Source of the DNA: Candidatus Tayloriibacteriota bacterium
Lineage (GTDB): Bacteria; Patescibacteriota; Minisyncoccia; Phycocordibacterales; PALSA-1337
DNA: 64,000 nucleotides
Reading direction: 5' to 3'
Assembly: GCA_903857825.1 (NCBI GenBank)
Contig: CAIOGI010000010.1
Coordinates: 46,542 to 110,541 of the forward strand
Below are positions 8,500 to 36,918 of this stretch, one piece after another. The translations under genes were made by a program, and so were the position numbers. The notes beneath the pieces were generated by a model. That model searched no databases. It saw nothing but the letters and a program-made list of their open reading frames with translations, and had not been told where the DNA came from. The number at the start of each line of letters is the position of its first letter. The first letter of the stretch is position 1.

Positions 8500-8618
8500 T
8501 GAATCACTGGACATCAGTCAGTTGGGCGCTACCTGTTGTGGCGCGCTACATGGTCGGAGCCATGCTTGGGCGAGGAAACCAGTCTGGGAGTACTCGCCCT
8601 TTATATTTATACTATTAG
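8499..8618 (+). other. GC-rich (about 55% GC) island upstream of the dnaK promoter: 39-aa ORF (MNHWTSVSWALPVVARYMVGAMLGRGNQSGSTRPLYLYY) with an apparent perfect SD GGAGGTGA; alternatively a structured regulatory element
   Basis: ORF hand-translated; 7-bp inverted repeat gggcgag(8568-8574)/ctcgccc(8593-8599); direct repeat ggcgctac x2; the apparent SD is the reverse complement of the putative dnaK -10, so the ORF may be fortuitous. Confidence 0.25.
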
Positions 8619-8917
8619 ACTACAAATGCCGGAGCTCTTGTTGGTTGACTCATAAAAAATTCTAATAAAAAGTAAGGTGAAAGTATTGATTCAAATTCAG
8701 CAAAGCTGGTTTCAATAATAACTTTACTTTCTTTAATGCATGGCAAGCAAATAACATCCTCAGCTGGCACTACGAACGGAATAGCGGAAATGATCTGAGC
8801 TTGGAATTTGCCATTTACTTCAACAACGGTAAAACGAATACGAACTAAAAGCCCGTTCTTGTCCTTAACAATTCTTTCAAAGATGCTATTAAGTTGTTTA
8901 TTTTGAAGGGATAGCAT
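8615..8917 (-). CDS. hypothetical protein, last gene of the HEPN/MNT operon
   Basis: ORF track; same strand and 25 bp downstream of the MNT gene; no motif recognised. Confidence 0.4.
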   Translation of the reverse strand: MLSLQNKQLNSIFERIVKDKNGLLVRIRFTVVEVNGKFQAQIISAIPFVVPAEDVICLPCIKESKVIIETSFAEFESILSPYFLLEFFMSQPTRAPAFVV

Positions 8918-8942
8918 ATTAATTAAGATATTATATTAAACT

Positions 8943-9257
8943 TTATTTATTATTCAAGTTTTTATAAAACAATTTTCCTTCTTCATCTATATGCTTCTTT
9001 AATTCAATATTTGAAATACTATTATAATCAAGAACATCAACTTTATATGGGAACCTTGGTGCATTATCAAGCATATTTCTAAAATCTGATGCTGTGTTTG
9101 TATTTAATATTCCTTTTAAGGCAATATCTATATCTGATGCAGGTTTATAATTTCCCATTGCTCTTGAACCAAAGATAATAAGTTCGTCAACATCTGGAAA
9201 GACTTGAACATATCTTGAAATAATTTCTAAAATATCATCATTTAATCCAAATTTCAT
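8943..9257 (-). CDS. minimal nucleotidyltransferase (MNT, HI0073-like) antitoxin-type protein
   Basis: Pol-beta-type NTase motif ...LIIFGSRAMGNYKPASDIDIAL... (GS-x9-DxD); 104 aa; start overlaps upstream HEPN gene by 4 bp. Confidence 0.8.
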   Translation of the reverse strand: MKFGLNDDILEIISRYVQVFPDVDELIIFGSRAMGNYKPASDIDIALKGILNTNTASDFRNMLDNAPRFPYKVDVLDYNSISNIELKKHIDEEGKLFYKNLNNK

Positions 9258-9652
9258 AGTGATTTCTTGAAATATACATAAAGATCAGCAAAAATCTTTG
9301 CGTACGATTCTCTAATTAGCTTCTCGGCCTTTATACTAAGTATTTCATCATAAATATGAGATAATTCGTTTCTCTTATCTAGTGCTTCTAACCACATTTC
9401 TCCATTTTCAATATAGCCTGTTTGTAAAGCTTGCTTAAGCGTATCGCGTGGAGTTTTTAATATAAATCCTTCAAATTCTAGTTTATCATTCATTGTTTTC
9501 CAGGATAATTCAAAAAGAAATTCAAATGTCTGAATTAGCGCAGCACGAAACAAGTCATCGTTTGTTGTATCTTGTTTTAGAGCTCTTAAAAATTGAGAAT
9601 ATGCTTTCTCAAAATTTGAAAATCTTTGTTTCCATCTTTTTTCATTTTTCAT
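9254..9652 (-). CDS. HEPN-domain protein of the HI0074 / nucleotidyltransferase-substrate-binding family (toxin-type partner of MNT)
   Basis: RNELSHIYD fits the HEPN Rx4-6H motif; 132 aa all-helical; ATGA 4-bp overlap with the MNT gene. Confidence 0.75.
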   Translation of the reverse strand: MKNEKRWKQRFSNFEKAYSQFLRALKQDTTNDDLFRAALIQTFEFLFELSWKTMNDKLEFEGFILKTPRDTLKQALQTGYIENGEMWLEALDKRNELSHIYDEILSIKAEKLIRESYAKIFADLYVYFKKSL

Positions 9653-9846
9653 ATCAATACTTTATTATAATTATTAGCTGGTAATACGTGCATAAATACT
9701 GCTTTATCTTGACACGTTTTTTTCTTTAAACTAATAAGAGACCCAGATGATGCAAGAATTTTTTTATAATCAATAGACAAAGCTACCCATTTATTTTCAT
9801 GAGATTTATTAATTAGGCTTAGATTTGGTGCTTTTACTAGTTCCAT
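9649..9846 (-). CDS. small hypothetical protein (65 aa), first gene of the HEPN/MNT operon
   Basis: ORF track; 4-bp overlap with HEPN gene start; family not recognised. Confidence 0.4.
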   Translation of the reverse strand: MELVKAPNLSLINKSHENKWVALSIDYKKILASSGSLISLKKKTCQDKAVFMHVLPANNYNKVLI

Positions 9847-9904
9847 GATGTTATATTATACTATTTTTCAAGTAATTTCAAGCCAAGTATGCTACACTTA
9901 CCTT

Positions 9905-10195
9905 ATGGAAAGCCTTATTCATGCAGACATATTCTTCTTCGTAACAACAGTTATTGTTATTATGCTTGGAATCATACTTGTAGTCATCCTTATCTACATT
10001 GCCATTATACTTGCTGATATTCGTGCAATATCACGTATCGCAAGATCTGAGAGTGCTGATATAGCAGATGATATACATATGATTCGAAGTGAAGTGCAAT
10101 CTGAACTTAGAAGAGGATCATCTGTTATCGCTTCCCTAGTGCGGGTTATTCGTGGTCTCTTTCGTCGAAGAAAGTCACGAATTAATAAAGGTTAA
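9905..10195 (+). CDS. small single-pass membrane protein (listed ORF starts at 9845; ATG at 9905 preferred)
   Basis: one strongly hydrophobic helix (FFFVTTVIVIMLGIILVVILIYIAIIL) then a charged helical tail. Confidence 0.4.
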   Translation: MESLIHADIFFFVTTVIVIMLGIILVVILIYIAIILADIRAISRIARSESADIADDIHMIRSEVQSELRRGSSVIASLVRVIRGLFRRRKSRINKG

Positions 10196-10247
10196 TTCTC
10201 TATTTAATATGAAAAAAGTAAATATAAAGGAAGCGGGAGGTCACAAG

Positions 10248-10580
10248 ATGGCCTTGGGTGTAGGTATTGCTGCAGCAGTAGCGGCTGCTGCAGGTGCATA
10301 CTTTCTGTATGGTTCAGCAAAAGGACCAGCTAGAAGAAAAGCAATCAAGACTTGGTCTATCAAGATGAAAGCAGAAGTAATGGAAGAAGTAGAAAAAATG
10401 CAGGATATAAGTGAGGAAGTATATCATTCAGCGATAGATAAGGTATCAAAGAAATATGCAGACATGAAAGGAATAGATGTAAAGGAGCTGGAGACTACGG
10501 TAAAGCAATTAAAGGGACATTGGAAGGATATAAAGAAGGAAGCGGAGAAGGCAATAAAGAAAGGAGCGAAGCTGGTCTAA
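10248..10580 (+). CDS. YtxH-like small membrane-anchored protein (Gly/Ala-rich TM helix plus coiled coil)
   Basis: MALGVGIAAAVAAAAGAYFLYGSAKGPARRK... resembles the YtxH N-terminus; strong SD gggagg 7 nt before the ATG at 10248 (listed ORF begins at 10152). Confidence 0.55.
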   Translation: MALGVGIAAAVAAAAGAYFLYGSAKGPARRKAIKTWSIKMKAEVMEEVEKMQDISEEVYHSAIDKVSKKYADMKGIDVKELETTVKQLKGHWKDIKKEAEKAIKKGAKLV

Positions 10581-10628
10581 ATATATATGTGCGACAAAAA
10601 ACAAGGCCTTATAATGAGGCTTTTGTTT

Positions 10629-11489
10629 TTACTTATCACTTTTCTTAACAAAATCCTTAGCGAAATTTACCAGATATGTGTATGAAGACTCTGACTCAGC
10701 TATAAATTCTTTTATCTTGTTGAATCTCAAGTCTAAATACTCATGCGCTAAGATGTTTCTAATTTTAGCAAATCTACCTAGAACTTTTGCTTTTTCAAGA
10801 TCAAATCCATTTACTTCAATTAAATTTTCTAATATCGATTTATAAGTATTTGGAATAAGCTTCTTTTCTGAAGCTAAAATAATCTTTGATATGTCGACAC
10901 TTGAATTTACAATATTTTCTACCCACCTTTCCATACTTCTTTTTACATCTCTATCTGTTTGATATTTTATTTGATCCACCTTTTTAAATTTTGAGAAATC
11001 TTTAATTTCTTGTTCTAAAAATTCCACGATCTTTATTAGTCTTTCCTTGTCTGTAAGGCTGAGTGAATTTGACCTCTCTTTGATTTTAATAAAATCATCC
11101 ATATAATCTCTATAATATTCTGCAGCTTCATTTATTACATTTGAAAATCTAGCAAAATATTTAGGGTCTTTCATTATAAGCAATTTCCCATCATTTATGA
11201 TTGAATCGGCAAGGGTTGAAGAAGCCCTATTGAGAACAACCATATCTGTTTTTATTTCAAGAATTTTCTCAATCTCAGACCAAAGCTCATCCTCGCCTTT
11301 ATATGATTTCTCTTCCTCATATTCAACGTCACTAGTCGTTGGCTTAAAATATACAGCAATATCAATATCTGACTCTCTATGCGTCATATCTTTTGCGTAA
11401 GAACCAAAGAGAAAAGCAGCTAGGACATTGTCTTGGGTCTCTAGAAATACTTTTAATTTATCTAGTTTTTCTAGGATTTCTTTGCTCAT
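10629..11489 (-). CDS. fused nucleotidyltransferase (MNT) + HEPN (DUF86/HepT-like) protein
   Basis: N-terminus LFGSYAKDMTHRESDIDIAV (NTase GS...DxD); C-terminus RNILAHEY (HEPN Rx4HxY); 286 aa. Confidence 0.75.
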   Translation of the reverse strand: MSKEILEKLDKLKVFLETQDNVLAAFLFGSYAKDMTHRESDIDIAVYFKPTTSDVEYEEEKSYKGEDELWSEIEKILEIKTDMVVLNRASSTLADSIINDGKLLIMKDPKYFARFSNVINEAAEYYRDYMDDFIKIKERSNSLSLTDKERLIKIVEFLEQEIKDFSKFKKVDQIKYQTDRDVKRSMERWVENIVNSSVDISKIILASEKKLIPNTYKSILENLIEVNGFDLEKAKVLGRFAKIRNILAHEYLDLRFNKIKEFIAESESSYTYLVNFAKDFVKKSDK

Positions 11490-11558
11490 AGTGTAATTCT
11501 ATCGTAATATCATTGTGCATAATAGCTTGACAAGTACTAAATACAGTGTATTATTTAA

Positions 11559-29561: not shown

Positions 29562-32468
29562 TTAAATGACTATATTTATAAGTTTTCCTTTGATAAAAAT
29601 AACCTTTTTTATCTCTTTATCCACAAGCCACTTATTAATCTCTGAAATTTTCTTTATCTCCTCTCTTACAAAACTTTCATCTGCTTCTATATTCGCCTCT
29701 ATCATTCCCCTCACTTTACCATTAATTTGTACCATTATTGACACTGTGTCGCTTACAAGTTTCTTCTCATCATACTTTGGCCATTTTTCAGTGTGAATTG
29801 ATTTTTTGTTTTTTAGATTTGCCCATATTTCTTCTGTAAAATGTGGGGCAAATGGTGATAACAGTCTTAGTAATATTTCATAATGCTCTTTGCTTACAGC
29901 TTTTCCCTTTTCTATTTCATTTACAAGTATCATCATTCCACTAATTGCTGTATTAAACTTCATGTCCTCAATATCTTCAGTGACTTTCTTTATAGTTTTA
30001 TGAACTAATATATTCAGACTATCACTGTGTCCTCTCAGCGACAATGGATCTGTCTTCGTGGCATAGCCAGTCGACAGACCATAGTCGCTTGCGGACACAT
30101 TACCAAATACAACTTTTTCCTGCAATTTCCAAACCTTTTCTATAAATCTTCTTGCTCCTGCTATGTTATTTGTATCCCAAGCAATAGCTTGATCGAAGGG
30201 TCCCATAAACATTTCATATATTCTCAAGGTATCCGCTCCGACAGTCTTAACAATATCATCTGGATTTATTACATTTCCTCGAGATTTTGACATTTTCTCA
30301 CCCCCCTCAGCTAGAATCATACCGTGAGATGTGCGCTTTTTGTACGGCTCACTGGTAGGTACTAGACCTTGATCAAAAAGGAATTTATGCCAAAAACGAG
30401 AGTATAACAAGTGTAGTGTTGTATGTTCCATACCACCGTTATACCAGTCTACCTGACCCCAATATTTCAACTTTTTCTTGTCTGCAAAAGCCTTATTATT
30501 TTTCGGATCCATATAGCGTAAATAGTACCAGCTTGAGCCTGCCCAATTTGGCATTGTATCTGTTTCTCTCTTTGCCTTTCCTTTACACTTTGGGCACTTC
30601 GTATTTACCCATTTATCAATTGATGCGAGCGGACTCTCACCACTCTCTGTTGGTGCATAATTTTTAACCTTTGGTAATTTCAAAGGTAATTCTTTGTCTG
30701 GCAATGGAACAATCCCACATTTTTCACAATGAACAACAGGAATAGGCTCACCCCAATAACGTTGACGTGAGAATATCCAGTCGCGGAGTTTAAATTTGGT
30801 AACCCACTTACCTCCGACAAATTCGGTGATTTCTTGCTTTACTGACTCAGAATCCTTGCTGTTGAATTTGCCAGAATTAATTAAAAGACCTTTTTCAGTA
30901 CTCGCATTATTTAGATTGTTTAAGCGGTGTAACCAAATATCTAACTCTCCACAACGCATTGTGTCTGGACGAATATCTTTTAGATCTAGCCAAATTGGCT
31001 CATGTTTTTCAGATTCATCTTTACTTACAGTTCCAGAAGCATCGCCGTCCAATTCGAACAATGCAACATTAAAATATGCCACTCTATTTTCATCCTTATG
31101 CGCGGCGAAGAATTCACTTTTTACTGGACCACCAAGTATTCTAATGAATTTTAAATCTTTAATTCCAGTCTCTTCCAATATTTCTCTTCGAGCCGCTGTT
31201 TCAACGTTTTCACCTTCCTCAACTCCCCCAACAACAAAAGTGGTCCATGGTTGCTTTTTCCACTTCAGACACAAGATTTTGCCATTTTTAGGGTTTCTAA
31301 TTATTGCTTGAATGGCTTTTCTTTCTACAACTTTCTTTCCAGCAACATGAGGATTTATATAATCAATTCTTACTGGCATTACTACGTCTCGTATTTCAAG
31401 TCTATATTTCTTCGCAAAGTCCCAGTCTCTTTCATCATGTGCTGGTACAGCCATTACTGCTCCCGTTCCGTAGTCTGCTAAAACATAGTCAGCAAGCCAA
31501 ACTGGCACCTCTTCATTGTTTGCTGGATTTATAGCTTTTACACCCTTTAGTTCAACTCCAGTTTTTTCAGTCTTTGCATCTGTTCTATCAATTTCACTCT
31601 TTGTCTTTGATTCTTTAATATATTTTTCAACATCAGCCTTGTTCGAAACTTTAGCAATTAATTCACCAACAAATTCATGTTCTGGTGCAAGAACTACATA
31701 AGTAACTCCAAACAACGTATCTGGCCTAGTCGTAAATACCTTAATTTTTTTATCATTACCTTTTATTTGAAAGTCAATTTCAGCTCCCTCACTCTTTCCT
31801 ATCCAATTCCTCTGCTGTATCTTTATCTTTTCAAGAAAATCTGTTTCATCTAGGTCTTTATCAAGTCTTTCGGCGTATTTTGTAATAGCAAGCATCCATT
31901 GCTCCTTTTCCTTTTTCTCTACTTTCGTTCCACATCGCTCACAGCAACCATTTATAACCTCTTCATTAGCAAGACCAGTCAAATCCTTTGGACACCAATT
32001 GATAGTCATTTTTTTCTTGTAAGCCAAACCTGCTTTCAAGAATTGTAAGAAAATCCACTGTGTCCATTTATAGTATTTTGGATCAGTAGTATCTATTTCA
32101 CGAGACCAGTCAAAAGAAATACCGAGAGATTTTATTTGCTTTTTAAATGTATCAGAATTTTTCTTTGTAATTATTGCAGGGTTAATACCTGTCTTTATCG
32201 CATAATTCTCTGCTGGCAAACCGAAAGCATCCCAACCTATCGGGTACATTACATTAAGACCCTCTGCACGCTTTTTGCGGGCAATAATATCCATTCCCAC
32301 GTATGATCTAGGATGTCCTATATGAAGTCCTGCTCCAGAGGGATAAGGAAACTCAATCAGGGCATAAAACTTTTTCTTTTTGCTATCCTCTTTGACTTTA
32401 TTTGGCTTTTTCTTCTCCCAAACTTTCTGCCATTTCGTTTCTATTTTTTTATGATCATATTCATTCAT
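29562..32468 (-). CDS. leuS: leucine--tRNA ligase carrying an inserted Nudix hydrolase domain
   Basis: HIGH (GLHIGHPRSY), editing-domain TTRPDT and GTGAVMAVPAHD, KMSKS; Nudix box GGVEEGENVETAARREILEETGI at residues about 414-436. Confidence 0.95.
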   Translation of the reverse strand: MNEYDHKKIETKWQKVWEKKKPNKVKEDSKKKKFYALIEFPYPSGAGLHIGHPRSYVGMDIIARKKRAEGLNVMYPIGWDAFGLPAENYAIKTGINPAIITKKNSDTFKKQIKSLGISFDWSREIDTTDPKYYKWTQWIFLQFLKAGLAYKKKMTINWCPKDLTGLANEEVINGCCERCGTKVEKKEKEQWMLAITKYAERLDKDLDETDFLEKIKIQQRNWIGKSEGAEIDFQIKGNDKKIKVFTTRPDTLFGVTYVVLAPEHEFVGELIAKVSNKADVEKYIKESKTKSEIDRTDAKTEKTGVELKGVKAINPANNEEVPVWLADYVLADYGTGAVMAVPAHDERDWDFAKKYRLEIRDVVMPVRIDYINPHVAGKKVVERKAIQAIIRNPKNGKILCLKWKKQPWTTFVVGGVEEGENVETAARREILEETGIKDLKFIRILGGPVKSEFFAAHKDENRVAYFNVALFELDGDASGTVSKDESEKHEPIWLDLKDIRPDTMRCGELDIWLHRLNNLNNASTEKGLLINSGKFNSKDSESVKQEITEFVGGKWVTKFKLRDWIFSRQRYWGEPIPVVHCEKCGIVPLPDKELPLKLPKVKNYAPTESGESPLASIDKWVNTKCPKCKGKAKRETDTMPNWAGSSWYYLRYMDPKNNKAFADKKKLKYWGQVDWYNGGMEHTTLHLLYSRFWHKFLFDQGLVPTSEPYKKRTSHGMILAEGGEKMSKSRGNVINPDDIVKTVGADTLRIYEMFMGPFDQAIAWDTNNIAGARRFIEKVWKLQEKVVFGNVSASDYGLSTGYATKTDPLSLRGHSDSLNILVHKTIKKVTEDIEDMKFNTAISGMMILVNEIEKGKAVSKEHYEILLRLLSPFAPHFTEEIWANLKNKKSIHTEKWPKYDEKKLVSDTVSIMVQINGKVRGMIEANIEADESFVREEIKKISEINKWLVDKEIKKVIFIKGKLINIVI

Positions 32469-32940: not shown

Positions 32941-34092
32941 ATGAATAAAAACATGCATTTGGTCCTCTCTCTACTGCCCATGCTGATTGCGGCGGGAATT
33001 CTTTTTTTTGGTAAGTTTGAAAGCAGCAGCATGATGATGGGCATTATGGGAATCATAATAGGTATAGCTGGGCTATCAGGAACAGCGATCATCTACTTCA
33101 AACCAAAATGGTTGAAAATCCCAATAATAATTTTTCTGTGTTCGTTTTTTGCGATCTACTCCCCTAGCGGGATGGGTCAGCAAATCCAACAGAGATCAAT
33201 TGATAGCAGCAAGAGTACCATTGTGAATGAAAGCGTTCCTGTTTCCTTCACGATGCTATCTCATCCTACCAATTCGGTAGTGATTACTAGTCTCGACAAT
33301 ACAAACAACACTCGCGTCATCGATGCGGGAGCAGAAGTAATTCAATCAGCAGATGGTGTAATTCAGGTCTTGGTATCTAGGGACGTCACATACACCATCC
33401 TCAGTATTGATGGGGAATCAATATTCCTGATAGATGACGTCACAAATGAGGTCTTCAGGGGACCGAAGGTAGATCTATGCAAGGTCTTGTTCTTGCTGAT
33501 AGTGATCGCCGCTGGAGTCTATGTGCTTGTGAAGGTTGTGAAATGTGGTAGTAGGGTTGTTTCAACTTATGTATCAAACCTGAATAAAGCAATGTTGGAT
33601 CCAGAAGATTGCCCTCCACCAAAACAACCTCCGCTCACTAACAGCACAATGACCCTGATAACACCTGCAGGATTTGTTGCAATGATTGATGAAGATGGTG
33701 GGGACTATTACCACACGACGACCAGTGTAACAAATGGTGCAGTTGACTGGCGCGGAAATCCGATTCTCTACAAGATCGGCACGGCTATAGGGCCAAATGC
33801 GATTGTGGCCGTTGATGCCATGGGAAATATGCACCCATATCCTACGTGTTATTCCACCAACAACACTGATTGGAAGAAAATCGGGCCACAATACCATGTC
33901 TCATGGCTTGGATATTCCACCAATCTCGAGGATGTGGTCACGCACACGACAATCAGCTTCACAAGCGAATGTAAAGCTTTTTCCACAAATTGGTTTTGGA
34001 AAGTCAACGGTGCTTGGAGGGAAATGCGAGTAGGTGACCTAAGGAATTATTTTCCCAAAAGTCCCCAAATGTACTTCAGGGCTGGCCAGTGA
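32941..34092 (+). CDS. hypothetical multi-pass membrane protein, GC-elevated (probable horizontally acquired gene)
   Basis: three N-terminal TM helices, a fourth TM near residue 185, Cys/Trp-containing C-terminal domain; local GC about 45-48% versus about 30% flanks; sits between terminators. Confidence 0.55.
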   Translation: MNKNMHLVLSLLPMLIAAGILFFGKFESSSMMMGIMGIIIGIAGLSGTAIIYFKPKWLKIPIIIFLCSFFAIYSPSGMGQQIQQRSIDSSKSTIVNESVPVSFTMLSHPTNSVVITSLDNTNNTRVIDAGAEVIQSADGVIQVLVSRDVTYTILSIDGESIFLIDDVTNEVFRGPKVDLCKVLFLLIVIAAGVYVLVKVVKCGSRVVSTYVSNLNKAMLDPEDCPPPKQPPLTNSTMTLITPAGFVAMIDEDGGDYYHTTTSVTNGAVDWRGNPILYKIGTAIGPNAIVAVDAMGNMHPYPTCYSTNNTDWKKIGPQYHVSWLGYSTNLEDVVTHTTISFTSECKAFSTNWFWKVNGAWREMRVGDLRNYFPKSPQMYFRAGQ

Positions 34093-34118
34093 GAGCCAAC
34101 CTTCTGAGAACCAACACG

Positions 34119-34150
34119 CGCTTCGGAACTCTTCCGAAGCGTGCTTTTTT
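34119..34150 (+). terminator. strong intrinsic terminator (10-bp stem cgcttcggaa/ttccgaagcg, loop ctc, then tgcTTTTTT)
   Basis: read directly. Confidence 0.7.
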
Positions 34151-34165
34151 ATACAAAAAAATAAA

Positions 34166-34184
34166 GGGGAGTTTAAGCTCCCCC
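34166..34184 (-). terminator. intrinsic terminator for the zinc-ribbon gene (stem ggggag/ctcccc then T-run on the minus strand)
   Basis: read directly; forms a bidirectional terminator pair with 34119-34150. Confidence 0.55.
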
Positions 34185-34192
34185 GTTCCGTG

Positions 34193-34390
34193 TCATGTCT
34201 TACAAATCCAATTTAGAGACCTTTCTCTAACCTTAGATTTTCGAAGTTCTTCAGACTCAGCATACTGACCAGCACAATCATCATCACAAAATGCTTTCCC
34301 TCCTTTGTTACGAACATGATGCTCACCCAAATTCTTACCGCAATTTACACAACCAAACTTAGTTCTAGAGAATGAATAATGTCGTATCAT
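34193..34390 (-). CDS. small zinc-ribbon protein (CxxC...C...C)
   Basis: GCVNCGKNLGEHH...AFCDDDCAGQY; 65 aa. Confidence 0.45.
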   Translation of the reverse strand: MIRHYSFSRTKFGCVNCGKNLGEHHVRNKGGKAFCDDDCAGQYAESEELRKSKVRERSLNWICKT

Positions 34391-34648
34391 ACTTTCCTTT
34401 CTGTTTATATATTATACACAAGCCCAAAATATATACAAAAAAGGCGAGAAGAAGGCGACGTGTCCTCCAACTCGCCCAAAGGTTTACGAGCCTACCGAAC
34501 ACTCGTTCAATCCTTTCTCCTTAAGCAACTAGGGAAATCGTGTGAGCGCACAGTTCCGATTTCTTATTCCTGATTTCTGAGACAAAGCGAACTGTCTTGT
34601 CCGTTCAGGAACGCTGCTAGTTAAATTGTAACATTAAAGTAATTAAAT

Positions 34649-34667
34649 CCTAAACTCCATCACATCC
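34649..34667. repeat. 19-bp direct repeat ctaaactccatcacatccc (left copy; 22/23 when extended), a duplicate of the ychF 3' end, immediately downstream of the Fic gene
   Basis: exact 19-mer also at 35829-35847, where it encodes the ychF C-terminus (DGDVMEFRI*). Confidence 0.75.
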
Positions 34668-34688
34668 CGTAAAATAATTCTTCGTATT

Positions 34689-35753
34689 TTAACTTTTTGC
34701 AATAACCGCATAATTCTTTGCAGCAAAAATATATTGCTCTATAAATATCTTTTTAAACGAGATTAAAGAATTTAATTCGTAAAATACTAATATCGCTTCT
34801 TTGTACTCATTCTCATCGACACTACGATATGATAGTGGAGCAAATCCATGAGCAAGTAAAATTGAATTCGCTATCAATCTTGAAGTTCTTTTATTTCCAT
34901 CCTCGAATGGCTGAATGTAACTCAAACCAAGTAACATTACTAAGGCCTTTGAATATGGAGACTTCATTTTATTCACTATCTCACAGAGTGTTTCAATAGC
35001 TTCTTTTATTTGATGAATATTATCAAGTGGTCTATATATGGAACCTGTAACTCCAACAGCTTTATTACGAAGACCATGATCAATATTTAAGTCCTTTATC
35101 AAAATTTTATGTATTTCTTCTATTACTGACAATTTAATATTCATAAATTCATGAATATTTTCTCTTATTTTTTTAAATGCATACTTATGATTAAGAATCA
35201 TCGAAGCCTCAAGCTTATTATGACCCTCTGCTTCTATGCCCTTACTTATAAGTTTCTCAGTGTCTAATAATGTATATGTATTTCCTTCTATTTTTGAAGA
35301 TTTCCATGATAGTTCAATAATAAATCTCTCTAGCTCTTTCTCCTCGAGTGTATTTGAAATCGACTTTATATTATTTTTATATATTTCTGTAGCTTTATTT
35401 AATTCATCTATTTCAAAGTCTAGAAAAATATCCTCATTGATATGGTTAAATAAATCAAAATTATAGCTCTTTAGACCAATTCGTTTATCTGGTTCAATAT
35501 TACAATATTCATGAGCATTAAGATTCGAATATATCCTACCCTTTGTACTTATTGAATACACAATTGACCGACCTGCACCAGATAATGCTAAGAGATTGAG
35601 TGATTTTAATTCAGTCAATTCACGCTTGACTGTAACAAGCGAAACTTCACTTTTACTTTCAAGTAGTTTGTTGTAAACATCAGACGAAGACAACTCTTCA
35701 TTATTAAGAAAAAAACTCAATATTATTTGTTGATTTTGAGCAATTTTTATCAT
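34689..35753 (-). CDS. Fic family protein with N-terminal winged-HTH-like region and a degenerate Fic motif (QPFEDGNKRTSRL: Gln replaces the catalytic His, Lys replaces the second Gly)
   Basis: motif read from translation; start preferred at MIKIAQ (35753) because the operator palindrome would otherwise lie inside the longer ORF-track coding region (to 35786). Confidence 0.7.
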   Translation of the reverse strand: MIKIAQNQQIILSFFLNNEELSSSDVYNKLLESKSEVSLVTVKRELTELKSLNLLALSGAGRSIVYSISTKGRIYSNLNAHEYCNIEPDKRIGLKSYNFDLFNHINEDIFLDFEIDELNKATEIYKNNIKSISNTLEEKELERFIIELSWKSSKIEGNTYTLLDTEKLISKGIEAEGHNKLEASMILNHKYAFKKIRENIHEFMNIKLSVIEEIHKILIKDLNIDHGLRNKAVGVTGSIYRPLDNIHQIKEAIETLCEIVNKMKSPYSKALVMLLGLSYIQPFEDGNKRTSRLIANSILLAHGFAPLSYRSVDENEYKEAILVFYELNSLISFKKIFIEQYIFAAKNYAVIAKS

Positions 35754-35798
35754 AATCGTATCATTTAATACTCTTAATCGTATCAAAATGATACGATT
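35754..35798. promoter_or_regulatory. operator-like element: perfect palindrome AATCGTATCA-aaa-TGATACGATT (35776-35798) plus an extra half-site AATCGTATCA (35754-35763) abutting the Fic start codon
   Basis: read directly; 10-bp arms; lies between the Fic gene start and the ychF stop. Confidence 0.55.
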
Positions 35799-35820
35799 AG
35801 TGCAATGTCCAATATTTGGT

Positions 35821-36918
35821 TTATATTCTAAACTCCATCACATCCCCATCTTTCACTATATATTCCTTCCCTTCTGTCCTTAGCAACCCTTTCTCCCTTG
35901 CAGCACCAAAAGATCCTGACTCTATCAACTTATCCCATTCTATAACTTCAGCTCGTATAAATTTATCCTTAAAGTCTCCATGAATAGCCGTTCCTGCTTC
36001 TGGTGCTGTCCAACCACGTCCAATAGTCCATGCGCGAGTTTCCTTTTCACCAGTTGTAAAATATGTAATCAAATTCAAAAGCTCATAACCTTTCTTTATT
36101 AAGTCATCAATACCATCATCCTTAGCGCCCAGTCCTTCTCGTAACTCCTTTTTTTCACTGTCATCAATATCTTTTAGCTCATGCTCTATACCAGCATCAA
36201 CTATGACCCACTTGGCTTTGTTTTCATCAAAAAAATTCATTAGAGCTTGATATCTTTCGTCTTTAATTTCATCAAGGTTCTTTCCTCCTGCTTTTTTATT
36301 CAAAATATACATGAAAGGCTTAGAAGTAAGCAGGTGTAGAGACTTTATAAATGGTTTTTCAAACTCATCTGCAATCACAGTAGAAGCTAGTCTTCCCGCA
36401 TCAAGAGCTGTCTTTATTTTCTCAAGCAAACCATTTTCGATAATTGCCTCCTTTTTTGCTTGTTGTATTTCTCTTCCGAGATTTGAAAGACGCTTCGTGA
36501 CAGTTTGTAGGTCAGCAAGTATAAGCTCAAGGTTAATAACTTCAATGTCCTTCAATGGATTAATCTTTCCATCAACGTGGATAATATTGTCATCTTCAAA
36601 AATACGAACCACTTCTGCGATAGCATCAGTCTCGCGAATATTTGTTAAAAATTGATTACCAAGACCTTCACCATCAGAGGCACCTTTCACGAGTCCAGCA
36701 ATATCTACGAACTCTACAACAGCCGGTACAGTCTTTTGTGTCTTAGAAAAGTCAGAAAGCTTGTATAGTCTATCATCAGGAACAGCCACAACACCCACAG
36801 ACGGGTCAATAGTTGCAAAAGGATAATTAGCAACAAGTACACTCTTTTTTGTAAGAGCGTTGAATAATGTACTTTTCCCCACGTTTGGTAAACCTACAAT
36901 TCCAATTGAAAGTGACAT
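35821..36918 (-). CDS. ychF: ribosome-binding ATPase YchF (Obg-family GTPase)
   Basis: [18 protein letters not shown] (G1), ...[10 protein letters not shown]..., C-terminal TGS domain; 365 aa. Confidence 0.9.
35829..35847. repeat. 19-bp direct repeat (right copy) within the 3' end of ychF
   Basis: identical to 34649-34667. Confidence 0.75.

Follow-up and report, generated by a model that had tools for sequence, protein, structure and literature searches.

The 64-kb window analyzed here (64,000 nucleotides of contig CAIOGI010000010.1, from the Candidatus Tayloriibacteriota assembly GCA_903857825.1) contains ychF, which encodes an Obg-family GTPase, followed by a gene that encodes a Fic protein with a helix-turn-helix domain (HTH-Fic) and, farther downstream, by the leucyl-tRNA synthetase gene leuS. 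At the ychF end, two direct repeats flank a short insert, and the Fic gene is the only open reading frame (ORF) between them. This agrees with an initial annotation, made from the sequence alone, which had described the insert as lacking a recombinase gene. The features of the locus are listed in Table 1.

The gene order ychF-leuS is conserved across about 40 Patescibacteria loci, in which the gap between the two genes ranges from ~450 bp to >5 kb and has unrelated content. In these relatives (referred to by locus numbers such as L006), YchF orthologues of 57–91% identity are encoded upstream of leuS. The GTDB loci closest to the window belong to metagenome-assembled genomes labelled Saccharibacteria or Patescibacteria. 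The gap in the window is 3.35 kb long and has only the ychF end and the leuS start in common with the relatives. Similarity stops at the ychF stop codon, in the proximal copy of the repeat, and picks up again ~20 nt before the leuS start. The initial annotation had expected relatives with an empty site to show ychF followed by a zinc-ribbon gene. This expectation did not hold, as the conserved neighbor is leuS and the zinc-ribbon gene is found in no relative examined.

Table 1. Features of the ychF-leuS region of the window (positions are those of the whole stretch; the Fic coordinates use the ATG start of the public gene calls; wHTH, winged helix-turn-helix)
Feature	Position	Strand	Remarks
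ychF, Obg-family GTPase, 365 aa, putative target gene	35821-36918	-	Pfam MMR_HSR1 and YchF-GTPase_C
Proximal site (attL-like), last nine ychF codons and stop, GATGGGGATGTGATGGAGTTTAGAATATAA	35821-35850	-	Holds the 19-mer at 35828-35846; profile match 35820-35855, E = 7e-8
Putative operator and promoter of the Fic cassette	35753-35799	-	Three half-site copies of TAATCGTATCA
HTH-Fic gene, 354 aa, sole cassette gene	34689-35753	-	Pfam Fic 4e-13, FUR-like wHTH 2e-5
Distal site (attR-like), non-coding copy of a ychF terminus, CGGGATGTGATGGAGTTTAGGATTTAA	34643-34668	-	19-mer at 34650-34668; 24/26 versus proximal site; profile match E = 5e-4
Non-coding stretch from distal site to zinc-ribbon gene	34391-34642	-	G+C 0.38–0.43 versus ~0.28 in Fic
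Zinc-ribbon ORF, 65 aa, lineage-specific cargo	34193-34390	-	Weak sub-cut-off Pfam zinc-finger matches only
Orphan ORF, 383 aa, lineage-specific gap content	32941-34092	+	G+C ~0.44–0.49
leuS, conserved downstream neighbor closing the gap	29562-32468	-	ychF-leuS synteny in most Patescibacteria loci

A duplicated ychF terminus and the recurrence of Fic cassettes

The repeat was first noticed as a 19-mer, CTAAACTCCATCACATCCC, that was said to be present exactly twice. A search of the whole window bears this out, with both copies in the same orientation on the plus strand, although the positions originally given for them were one base off. No further match appears when up to three mismatches are allowed, and none of 100 dinucleotide-preserving shuffles contained two matches (mean expectation 0.02), in keeping with the earlier view that a chance recurrence is unlikely. 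The repeat extends leftward to 26 nt (34643-34668 versus 35821-35846) with 24 of 26 positions identical, and the similarity ends at 34669/35847. In addition, a profile built from 88 related sites matches the window at these two places only.

Read on the minus strand, the ychF copy is GAT GGG GAT GTG ATG GAG TTT AGA ATA TAA, and the distal copy is TTA CGG GAT GTG ATG GAG TTT AGG ATT TAA. Both encode DVMEFRI followed by a stop codon in frame, and the two mismatches within the 26-nt match (AGA/AGG and ATA/ATT) are synonymous. The distal copy retains the frame and the DVMEFRI-stop sequence, with synonymous differences only, which identifies it as a non-coding duplicate of a ychF terminus. It starts 20 nt past the Fic stop codon and lies within no ORF of at least 40 aa, so the original statement that it has no coding role stands. 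The distal copy is identical at 27 of 27 positions to the functional ychF terminus of the relative L006. In the window, an intact ychF is reconstituted by one of the two direct repeats that flank the insert. An identical YchF is encoded by at least 13 contigs, which come from different samples and sources, and wherever the locus is shown, ychF is followed by the Fic gene. The arrangement is therefore not an assembly artifact.

Among the relatives, the site at the ychF end may be free of Fic or occupied otherwise. The nearest relative by YchF (L092/L111; 91% amino acid sequence identity) has a ychF-leuS gap of 572 bp without a Fic gene, and Fic is also absent in L007 and L009 (YchF ~90%) and in L011 (YchF 85%). 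Other cassettes are found at the ychF site in L007, L009, L010, and L014. In at least three other lineages, ychF is followed by a homologous HTH-Fic cassette, with identities to the window of 90% for YchF and 74% for Fic in L006, 70% and 69% in L118, and 71% and 69% in L115. The proposed insertion of the Fic cassette at the ychF 3' end is thus strengthened by Fic-less relatives and by homologous cassettes at the same site elsewhere, and the further copies bounded by the same kind of repeat that the initial annotation had suggested looking for do exist.

The boundaries of these cassettes are similar. The operator described below lies 6–36 nt past the left site, and 0–40 nt separate the Fic stop codon from the next site. 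In L006, ~55 nt of the ychF end of that locus recur behind the Fic cassette, with synonymous differences only. In L118, at least 45 nt of its own ychF end recur in this position, before another cassette and site. The Fic cassette of L115 takes the second position of an array, with a class A site on one side and a partial site on the other. The distal copy in the window looks like a shortened version of the ychF-end copies of the L006/L118 type. Furthermore, the identity of Fic does not scale with that of YchF. The pair with 90% YchF identity has 74% Fic identity, and pairs with 70–73% YchF identity have 67–71% Fic identity. The patchy presence of Fic and its lack of co-divergence with YchF therefore favor repeated gain and loss over simple vertical descent.

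Site arrays and a linked Xer-like recombinase

Sites that resemble the ychF end are not confined to Fic cassettes. One to four extra 30-mers of this kind lie downstream of ychF in L007, L009, L010, L014, L018, and L023, and such arrays are also present in most metagenome loci where ychF is within range. The sites in GTDB loci are found only downstream of ychF and on the ychF strand, the exception being L092/L111, which have two sites upstream of ychF. In L014, L009, and L010, the sites separate units of ~200–650 bp, of which two types can be read from the sequence. In the first type, a TTGACA-type promoter after the left site is followed by an ORF of 40–150 aa and by a hairpin terminator before the next site. 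Units of the second type are G+C-rich and lack an ORF, and their TTGACA box and terminator lie on the opposite strand. These ORF-less units have no match to an Rfam family and are probably small-RNA genes. Cassettes occur in both orientations. According to the initial annotation, finding the same repeats in relatives with unrelated content between them would speak against the insertion idea. Such loci do exist, so the observation was literally made, yet it generalizes the insertion idea rather than refuting it. The 30-mer is a recombination-site-like separator of many different mini-cassettes.

Two further features of the arrays were observed. In the ORF-less units, a cTTGACA box and a hairpin with a T-run are placed opposite to ychF (L007:7099-7323, L009:7099-7513, L014:7764-8260, L094:7256-7421, L109, and others), and one ORF-less family provides the first cassette in L007, L094, and L109. 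In L092 and L111 (L111:5852-6165), where the two sites are upstream of ychF, a ~19-kb pilus/chemotaxis block that extends in the window from the glucose-6-phosphate dehydrogenase (G6PD) gene to ychF is missing. The loss of this block may be a rearrangement between sites.

The consensus of the internal sites is gAA GATGGTrGTGnnATAGAGTTTAAGATTTAG, versus GAtGGnGAtGTgATnGAG... at the ychF ends. A CCxCCATC hairpin is enriched at cassette ends (6 of 43, versus a background of 0.9%) and is not general there. A scan of viral contigs for the internal-site pattern gave 0 matches. When metagenome contigs were scanned for the internal-site variant, 26 loci were obtained. In 17 of these, the match lies beside ychF, downstream and in arrays in 15 of them and upstream in L092 and L111. 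L107 starts too near its match to show the upstream content. The remaining eight loci have no ychF, and each has a tyrosine recombinase gene that ends ~350 bp upstream of the site on the same strand. Altogether, a recombinase gene is found ~350 bp from the site in 10 contigs. The internal sites are closer to each other and to the consensus of these recombinase-proximal sites than to the resident ychF end.

The recombinase is ~310 aa in length and 90–96% identical among the eight loci without ychF. It matches Pfam Phage_integrase (6e-26); in NCBIfam, XerA, XerC, and XerD score best, each below its cut-off. Homologues at 50–60% identity are distributed across many Patescibacteria classes, on long contigs. 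The upstream neighbors in five contigs are TrpR-like and phosphoribosyltransferase (PRTase)-like genes, which have 43–84% identity versus 90–94% for the recombinase. These shared neighbors that diverge faster, together with the wide spread of homologues, suggest that the recombinase is a conserved chromosomal Xer-like gene. A distant Xer homologue in L120 (59% identity) has no ychF-like site beside it, and the site is therefore clade-specific.

A small basic ORF of the KGG type lies in the interval between the recombinase gene and the site, together with ~170 nt of conserved, structured non-coding sequence. Similarity among the recombinase loci ends exactly at the site end. Beyond it are cassettes and more sites (L088, L103, L108), phage-like blocks (L113, L114, L122), or a chromosomal gene (L087). 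Some cassette families are common to both kinds of array, such as the first cassette of L088 and the first cassette of L115 (69% identity over 325 nt). The two loci therefore draw from a single cassette pool. With regard to the interval itself, the basic ORF and the ~170-nt stretch each have a TGnTATAAT promoter (L087:4270-4650, L096, L112, L113, L099, L090, L108, L088, L103). The ~170-nt stretch forms a long hairpin with a few compensatory changes, ends exactly at the site, and has no Rfam match. In two of the loci where phage-like genes follow (L113:1199-1240 and L122:2134-2162), the site is succeeded by CACCACC(G/A)TC, an inverted copy of its left part GATGGTGGTG, which gives a 10-20-10 dyad.

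These distributions bear on whether a mobile element is involved at all. The repeat pair might instead have arisen by local duplication of the ychF end, represent a regulatory or terminator motif common to both places, or be a product of chance, and the identical arrangement in all contigs of the species, with no excised form seen, would fit such an origin. However, the shuffled sequences and the preserved ychF frame and stop codon argue otherwise, the 30-mer is not a hairpin or terminator, and its profile has no further matches in the window. Moreover, the 30-mers of relatives are restricted to arrays next to ychF and to positions past the recombinase gene, and related cassettes occupy different array positions and loci. 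We regard an origin without a mobile element as very improbable.

Insertion could also proceed without a site-specific recombinase. In a Campbell-type event, a circle that carries Fic and ~30–60 nt of a ychF 3' end would integrate by a RecA-dependent single crossover. Such an event is consistent with the long duplications in L006 and L118, which carry resident codon variants (GTGGTGGAG in both L118 copies), and with the lack of a recombinase-type dyad in the site. However, the left ends of these duplications nearly coincide in L006 and L118 (at ACnGAAGG), and every cassette, including unrelated ones of ~300 bp, ends in the same conserved 30-mer. The resemblance of internal sites to the recombinase-proximal site is not predicted by homology to ychF, and all loci that lack ychF show the 30-mer in tight linkage with a tyrosine recombinase gene. 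Taken together, these points make the Campbell-type event unlikely.

The interpretation that we favor, with a probability of roughly 0.6, is that the Fic gene forms an integrase-less, cis-mobilizable cassette, which a recombinase acting in trans inserted at an attachment site at the ychF end. The attachment site would be the last ~30 nt of ychF, and insertion would occur by conservative site-specific recombination (B-O-P' ... P-O-B') with a crossover that presumably falls within this segment. Integration would leave the YchF protein intact, with one copy of the site at the ychF end and another past the cassette. New cassettes would enter adjoining ychF and push older ones toward leuS. Mini-cassettes would accumulate in tandem in this manner, each with its own promoter and terminator, and would carry small protein genes or putative small RNAs. 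The candidate for the recombinase in trans is the conserved chromosomal Xer-like tyrosine recombinase with the 30-mer ~350 bp downstream of its gene, which would catalyze the reaction and would be expected to be encoded in the genome of the window as well. The cassette may still be mobile. Att-like sites are present at both ends, recombination genes are absent, and the element does not encode an integrase of its own. As for the cognate integrase that the initial annotation had proposed to look for, the Xer-like candidate is found in related genomes and none in the annotated parts of the window.

Several observations weigh against this interpretation. The distal copy in the window is of the ychF type rather than the recombinase-proximal type, and the long duplications of resident variants in L006 and L118 also fit homologous recombination or gene conversion. 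Dif-like dyad symmetry is absent in 89 sites, with a best arm complementarity of 0.46. The Pfam tables of the window, which cover ~6.5–64 kb, contain no recombinase gene, and the Xer-like gene is seen only in related metagenome contigs, where it never shares a contig with ychF. The recombinase might belong to an integrated element or phage instead of being a host Xer protein, and it is directly followed by phage-like genes in the three loci noted above. Finally, no strictly empty site is found within the same species, in which all contigs carry the cassette, and no excised circle was observed.

The Fic protein and the remaining gap content

In the Fic protein, a winged-helix domain at the N terminus is combined with a class II Fic core. 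As in other class II proteins of the Fic/Fido fold, an inhibitory motif (S/T-x-x-x-E-G/N) precedes the core; this is SSKIEG in the window protein, and the motif is shared by 98 of 120 homologues. The best PDB match is FICD (2e-10), in an alignment that spans the core, and the best match among PADLOC defense families is SoFic (1e-19). The active-site motif, QPFEDGNKRTSR, is non-canonical. The HTH-Fic family has QPFxDGNKRxxR, versus HxFx(D/E)GNGRxxR in canonical Fic/Fido AMP-transferases, such that Gln replaces the catalytic His and NKR is Doc-like. The Gln and the Lys of this motif are kept in 118 of 120 homologues, and the Fic gene is therefore under selection. The family is very large in Patescibacteria, with 7987 matches. 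Its chemistry appears to be unusual because the catalytic His is Gln throughout the family, and standard AMP-transferase activity is unlikely for the window protein.

The region upstream of the Fic gene contains half-sites of TAATCGTATCA at 35753-35763 (overlapping the ATG) and 35775-35785, and an inverted one at 35789-35799. The inverted repeats are 100% complementary, and a weak promoter-like match is present at 35777-35749. The palindrome TAATCGTATCA-N3-TGATACGATTA is also found upstream of the Fic homologues in L006, L115, L117, and L118. The three half-sites around the start codon suggest autorepression of Fic through its N-terminal wHTH. Because the protein combines this wHTH and palindromic operator with an inhibitory helix motif, it is probably an autoregulated effector of a toxin-like or defense-like kind. 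The G+C content is ~0.28 in the Fic gene and ~0.38 in ychF.

The other 2.2 kb of the window gap comprise a stretch of higher G+C content, the zinc-ribbon ORF, and the 383-aa orphan ORF, all of which are lineage-specific. A site-profile search found no degenerate sites that bound the zinc-ribbon gene or the 383-aa ORF, and Fic is the only cassette with recognizable sites. The non-coding stretch next to the distal site has no Rfam match at relaxed E-values, no similarity to relatives, and no recognizable bounding site. A terminator-like hairpin (34165-34184) follows the zinc-ribbon ORF. The orphan ORF has no match in Pfam, NCBIfam, or PADLOC, and its homologues are found only in contigs of the same species. 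Across 32941-34600, which includes the orphan ORF and adjoining non-coding DNA, the G+C content is 0.42–0.49, versus 0.28–0.39 around it. This DNA is probably foreign and of an origin separate from the Fic cassette.

The initial annotation had left it between a minimal cassette and the remnant of a larger element. A remnant would be an integrative element or prophage with its own integrase, since reduced to Fic and the distal att site. The phage-like blocks right after the same site beside the integrase gene in L113, L114, and L122 are compatible with such a history, as is the additional lineage-specific DNA of odd composition past the distal site of the window. Moreover, integrative elements are known to target ychF elsewhere, as reported for pipolins, which carry large serine recombinases (PMC11551731). 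However, the same tight boundaries recur in four independent Fic cassettes, and the arrays of relatives consist of complete units of ~200–650 bp with promoter and terminator, so compact units are the norm. Furthermore, no integrase or integrase fragment is present in any of the ychF-leuS gaps of about 40 relatives. With compact cassettes of one gene or none as the rule, the minimal cassette is retained from the initial annotation, and a remnant is considered improbable.

Searches for RNA genes in the window found no tRNA or tmRNA with ARAGORN and no Rfam match at gathering thresholds. An RNA gene as the target was rejected, as relaxed Rfam searches of the window gap, the gaps of relatives, and the recombinase loci returned unrelated families at chance level.

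Three other observations concern neighboring genes. The Pfam tables place a NUDIX domain as an insertion within the leucyl-tRNA synthetase of the window (968 aa); this insertion is also present in L014 and L115, and the segment is apparently absent in L011 and L012. The ychF-leuS gap of a more distant relative contains a small ORF similar to GIY-YIG nucleases (L022:7858-8118, minus strand). At ~8500-11500 of the window, from grpE to dnaK, lies a small cluster of the nucleotidyltransferase/HEPN type (NTP_transf_2, HepT-like, NTase_sub_bind), which looks like another accessory or toxin-antitoxin hotspot.

Wider implications and comparison with known systems

The Patescibacteria, or Candidate Phyla Radiation (CPR), have very small genomes, and how their accessory genes are gained and exchanged is poorly understood. 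A defined 30-nt site with a candidate recombinase would offer a concrete and testable route of gene flow in these organisms. Recurrent, tiny, self-contained cassettes, some of them toxin-like or defense-like, would be part of this flow. The site would also mark accessory genes in CPR metagenomes, where the places to look are behind ychF and behind the Xer-like gene, and the site arrays may account for assembly breaks at these loci. Among the cargo, the large Fic subfamily with Gln in place of the catalytic His is also of interest.

A wider and more tentative proposal, to which we give somewhat less than even odds, is that the loci represent a gene-capture system of a Patescibacteria clade. In this system, the primary site of the Xer-like recombinase would adjoin the recombinase gene, and a secondary site of similar sequence would be provided by the ychF end. 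Both would accumulate arrays of self-expressed mini-cassettes with small proteins, putative small RNAs, and toxin-like or defense-like genes such as Fic, and the same site would also serve as a phage attachment site. If true, this would be a platform similar to integrons or to integrative mobile elements exploiting Xer (IMEXs), in bacteria whose genomes are tiny and for which few mechanisms of mobile elements are known. In a limited search of open-access literature, we found no prior description of cassette arrays or of the Xer-like link in Patescibacteria. A prophage attB in the gap upstream of ychF has been described in pneumococci (PMC8637289).

The IMEXs of Vibrio cholerae, CTXphi and TLCphi (PMC4246890; bioRxiv 10.1101/2021.09.09.459576), resemble the cassettes in having no integrase of their own and in inserting in direct orientation. 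They use the site of a host Xer-type tyrosine recombinase, as the cassettes may also do, and accumulate in tandem with a site between them, and phage-like genomes are found at the site in both cases. In contrast, the targets here are the coding 3' end of ychF and a recombinase-adjacent site, neither with the 11-6-11 dyad of dif, and the cassettes are far smaller (0.2–1.2 kb). A dif target would have inverted arms of ~11 bp around a 6–8 bp spacer and lie at the replication terminus. The sites here lack this structure, and the window shows no terminus-type switch in strand bias, as gene and GC-skew polarity are unchanged across ychF.

The dif (pdif) modules of Acinetobacter (PMC6449649; PMC13141974) are likewise small and recombinase-less, with short Xer-type sites, and are shuffled among replicons. 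They often contain toxin-antitoxin or resistance genes, with one or a few genes per module (PMC6449649; PMC13141974). Their 28-bp XerC/XerD sites alternate in inverted orientation on plasmids, whereas the 30-mers described here are direct and chromosomal, have no XerC/XerD-type arms, and in one case form a gene end.

Cis-mobilizable elements (CIMEs) and satellites of integrative elements that target tRNA genes, including the tycheposons of Prochlorococcus with their cargo-only arrays (bioRxiv 10.1101/2020.12.28.424599), also duplicate the 3' end of a gene and leave the gene intact. Further likenesses are arrays of repeated partial gene ends as marks of successive insertions, the lack of an integrase in many units, with a putative dependence in the present case on one acting in trans, and streamlined hosts. 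However, their targets are tRNA and tmRNA genes rather than ychF and a non-coding site adjacent to a recombinase gene. Moreover, the units here have a single gene or no ORF, and the candidate recombinase looks chromosomal and not element-borne.

Integrons are similar in layout only, with a tyrosine recombinase gene, a primary site, and an array of small cassettes that end in related sites. Integron cassettes are promoterless and carry attC hairpins, whereas the cassettes here have their own promoters and terminators, are placed in both orientations, and end in linear 30-mers. A second array, at ychF, lies away from the recombinase gene. In addition, the recombinase falls far short of the IntI models (52.7 bits versus a cut-off of 265 for TIGR02249, and 27.5 versus 435 for NF011946).

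For the cargo, the closest known proteins are class II Fic proteins (FICD/HYPE) and SoFic, which share the Fic fold, the S-x-x-x-E-G inhibitory motif, and the single-gene module. The window protein differs from these in its QPFxDGNKRxxR motif and in its N-terminal wHTH with a palindromic operator of its own. Among the known systems compared, the Fic element is classified only as an integrase-less, cis-mobilizable cassette at a gene-end attachment site.

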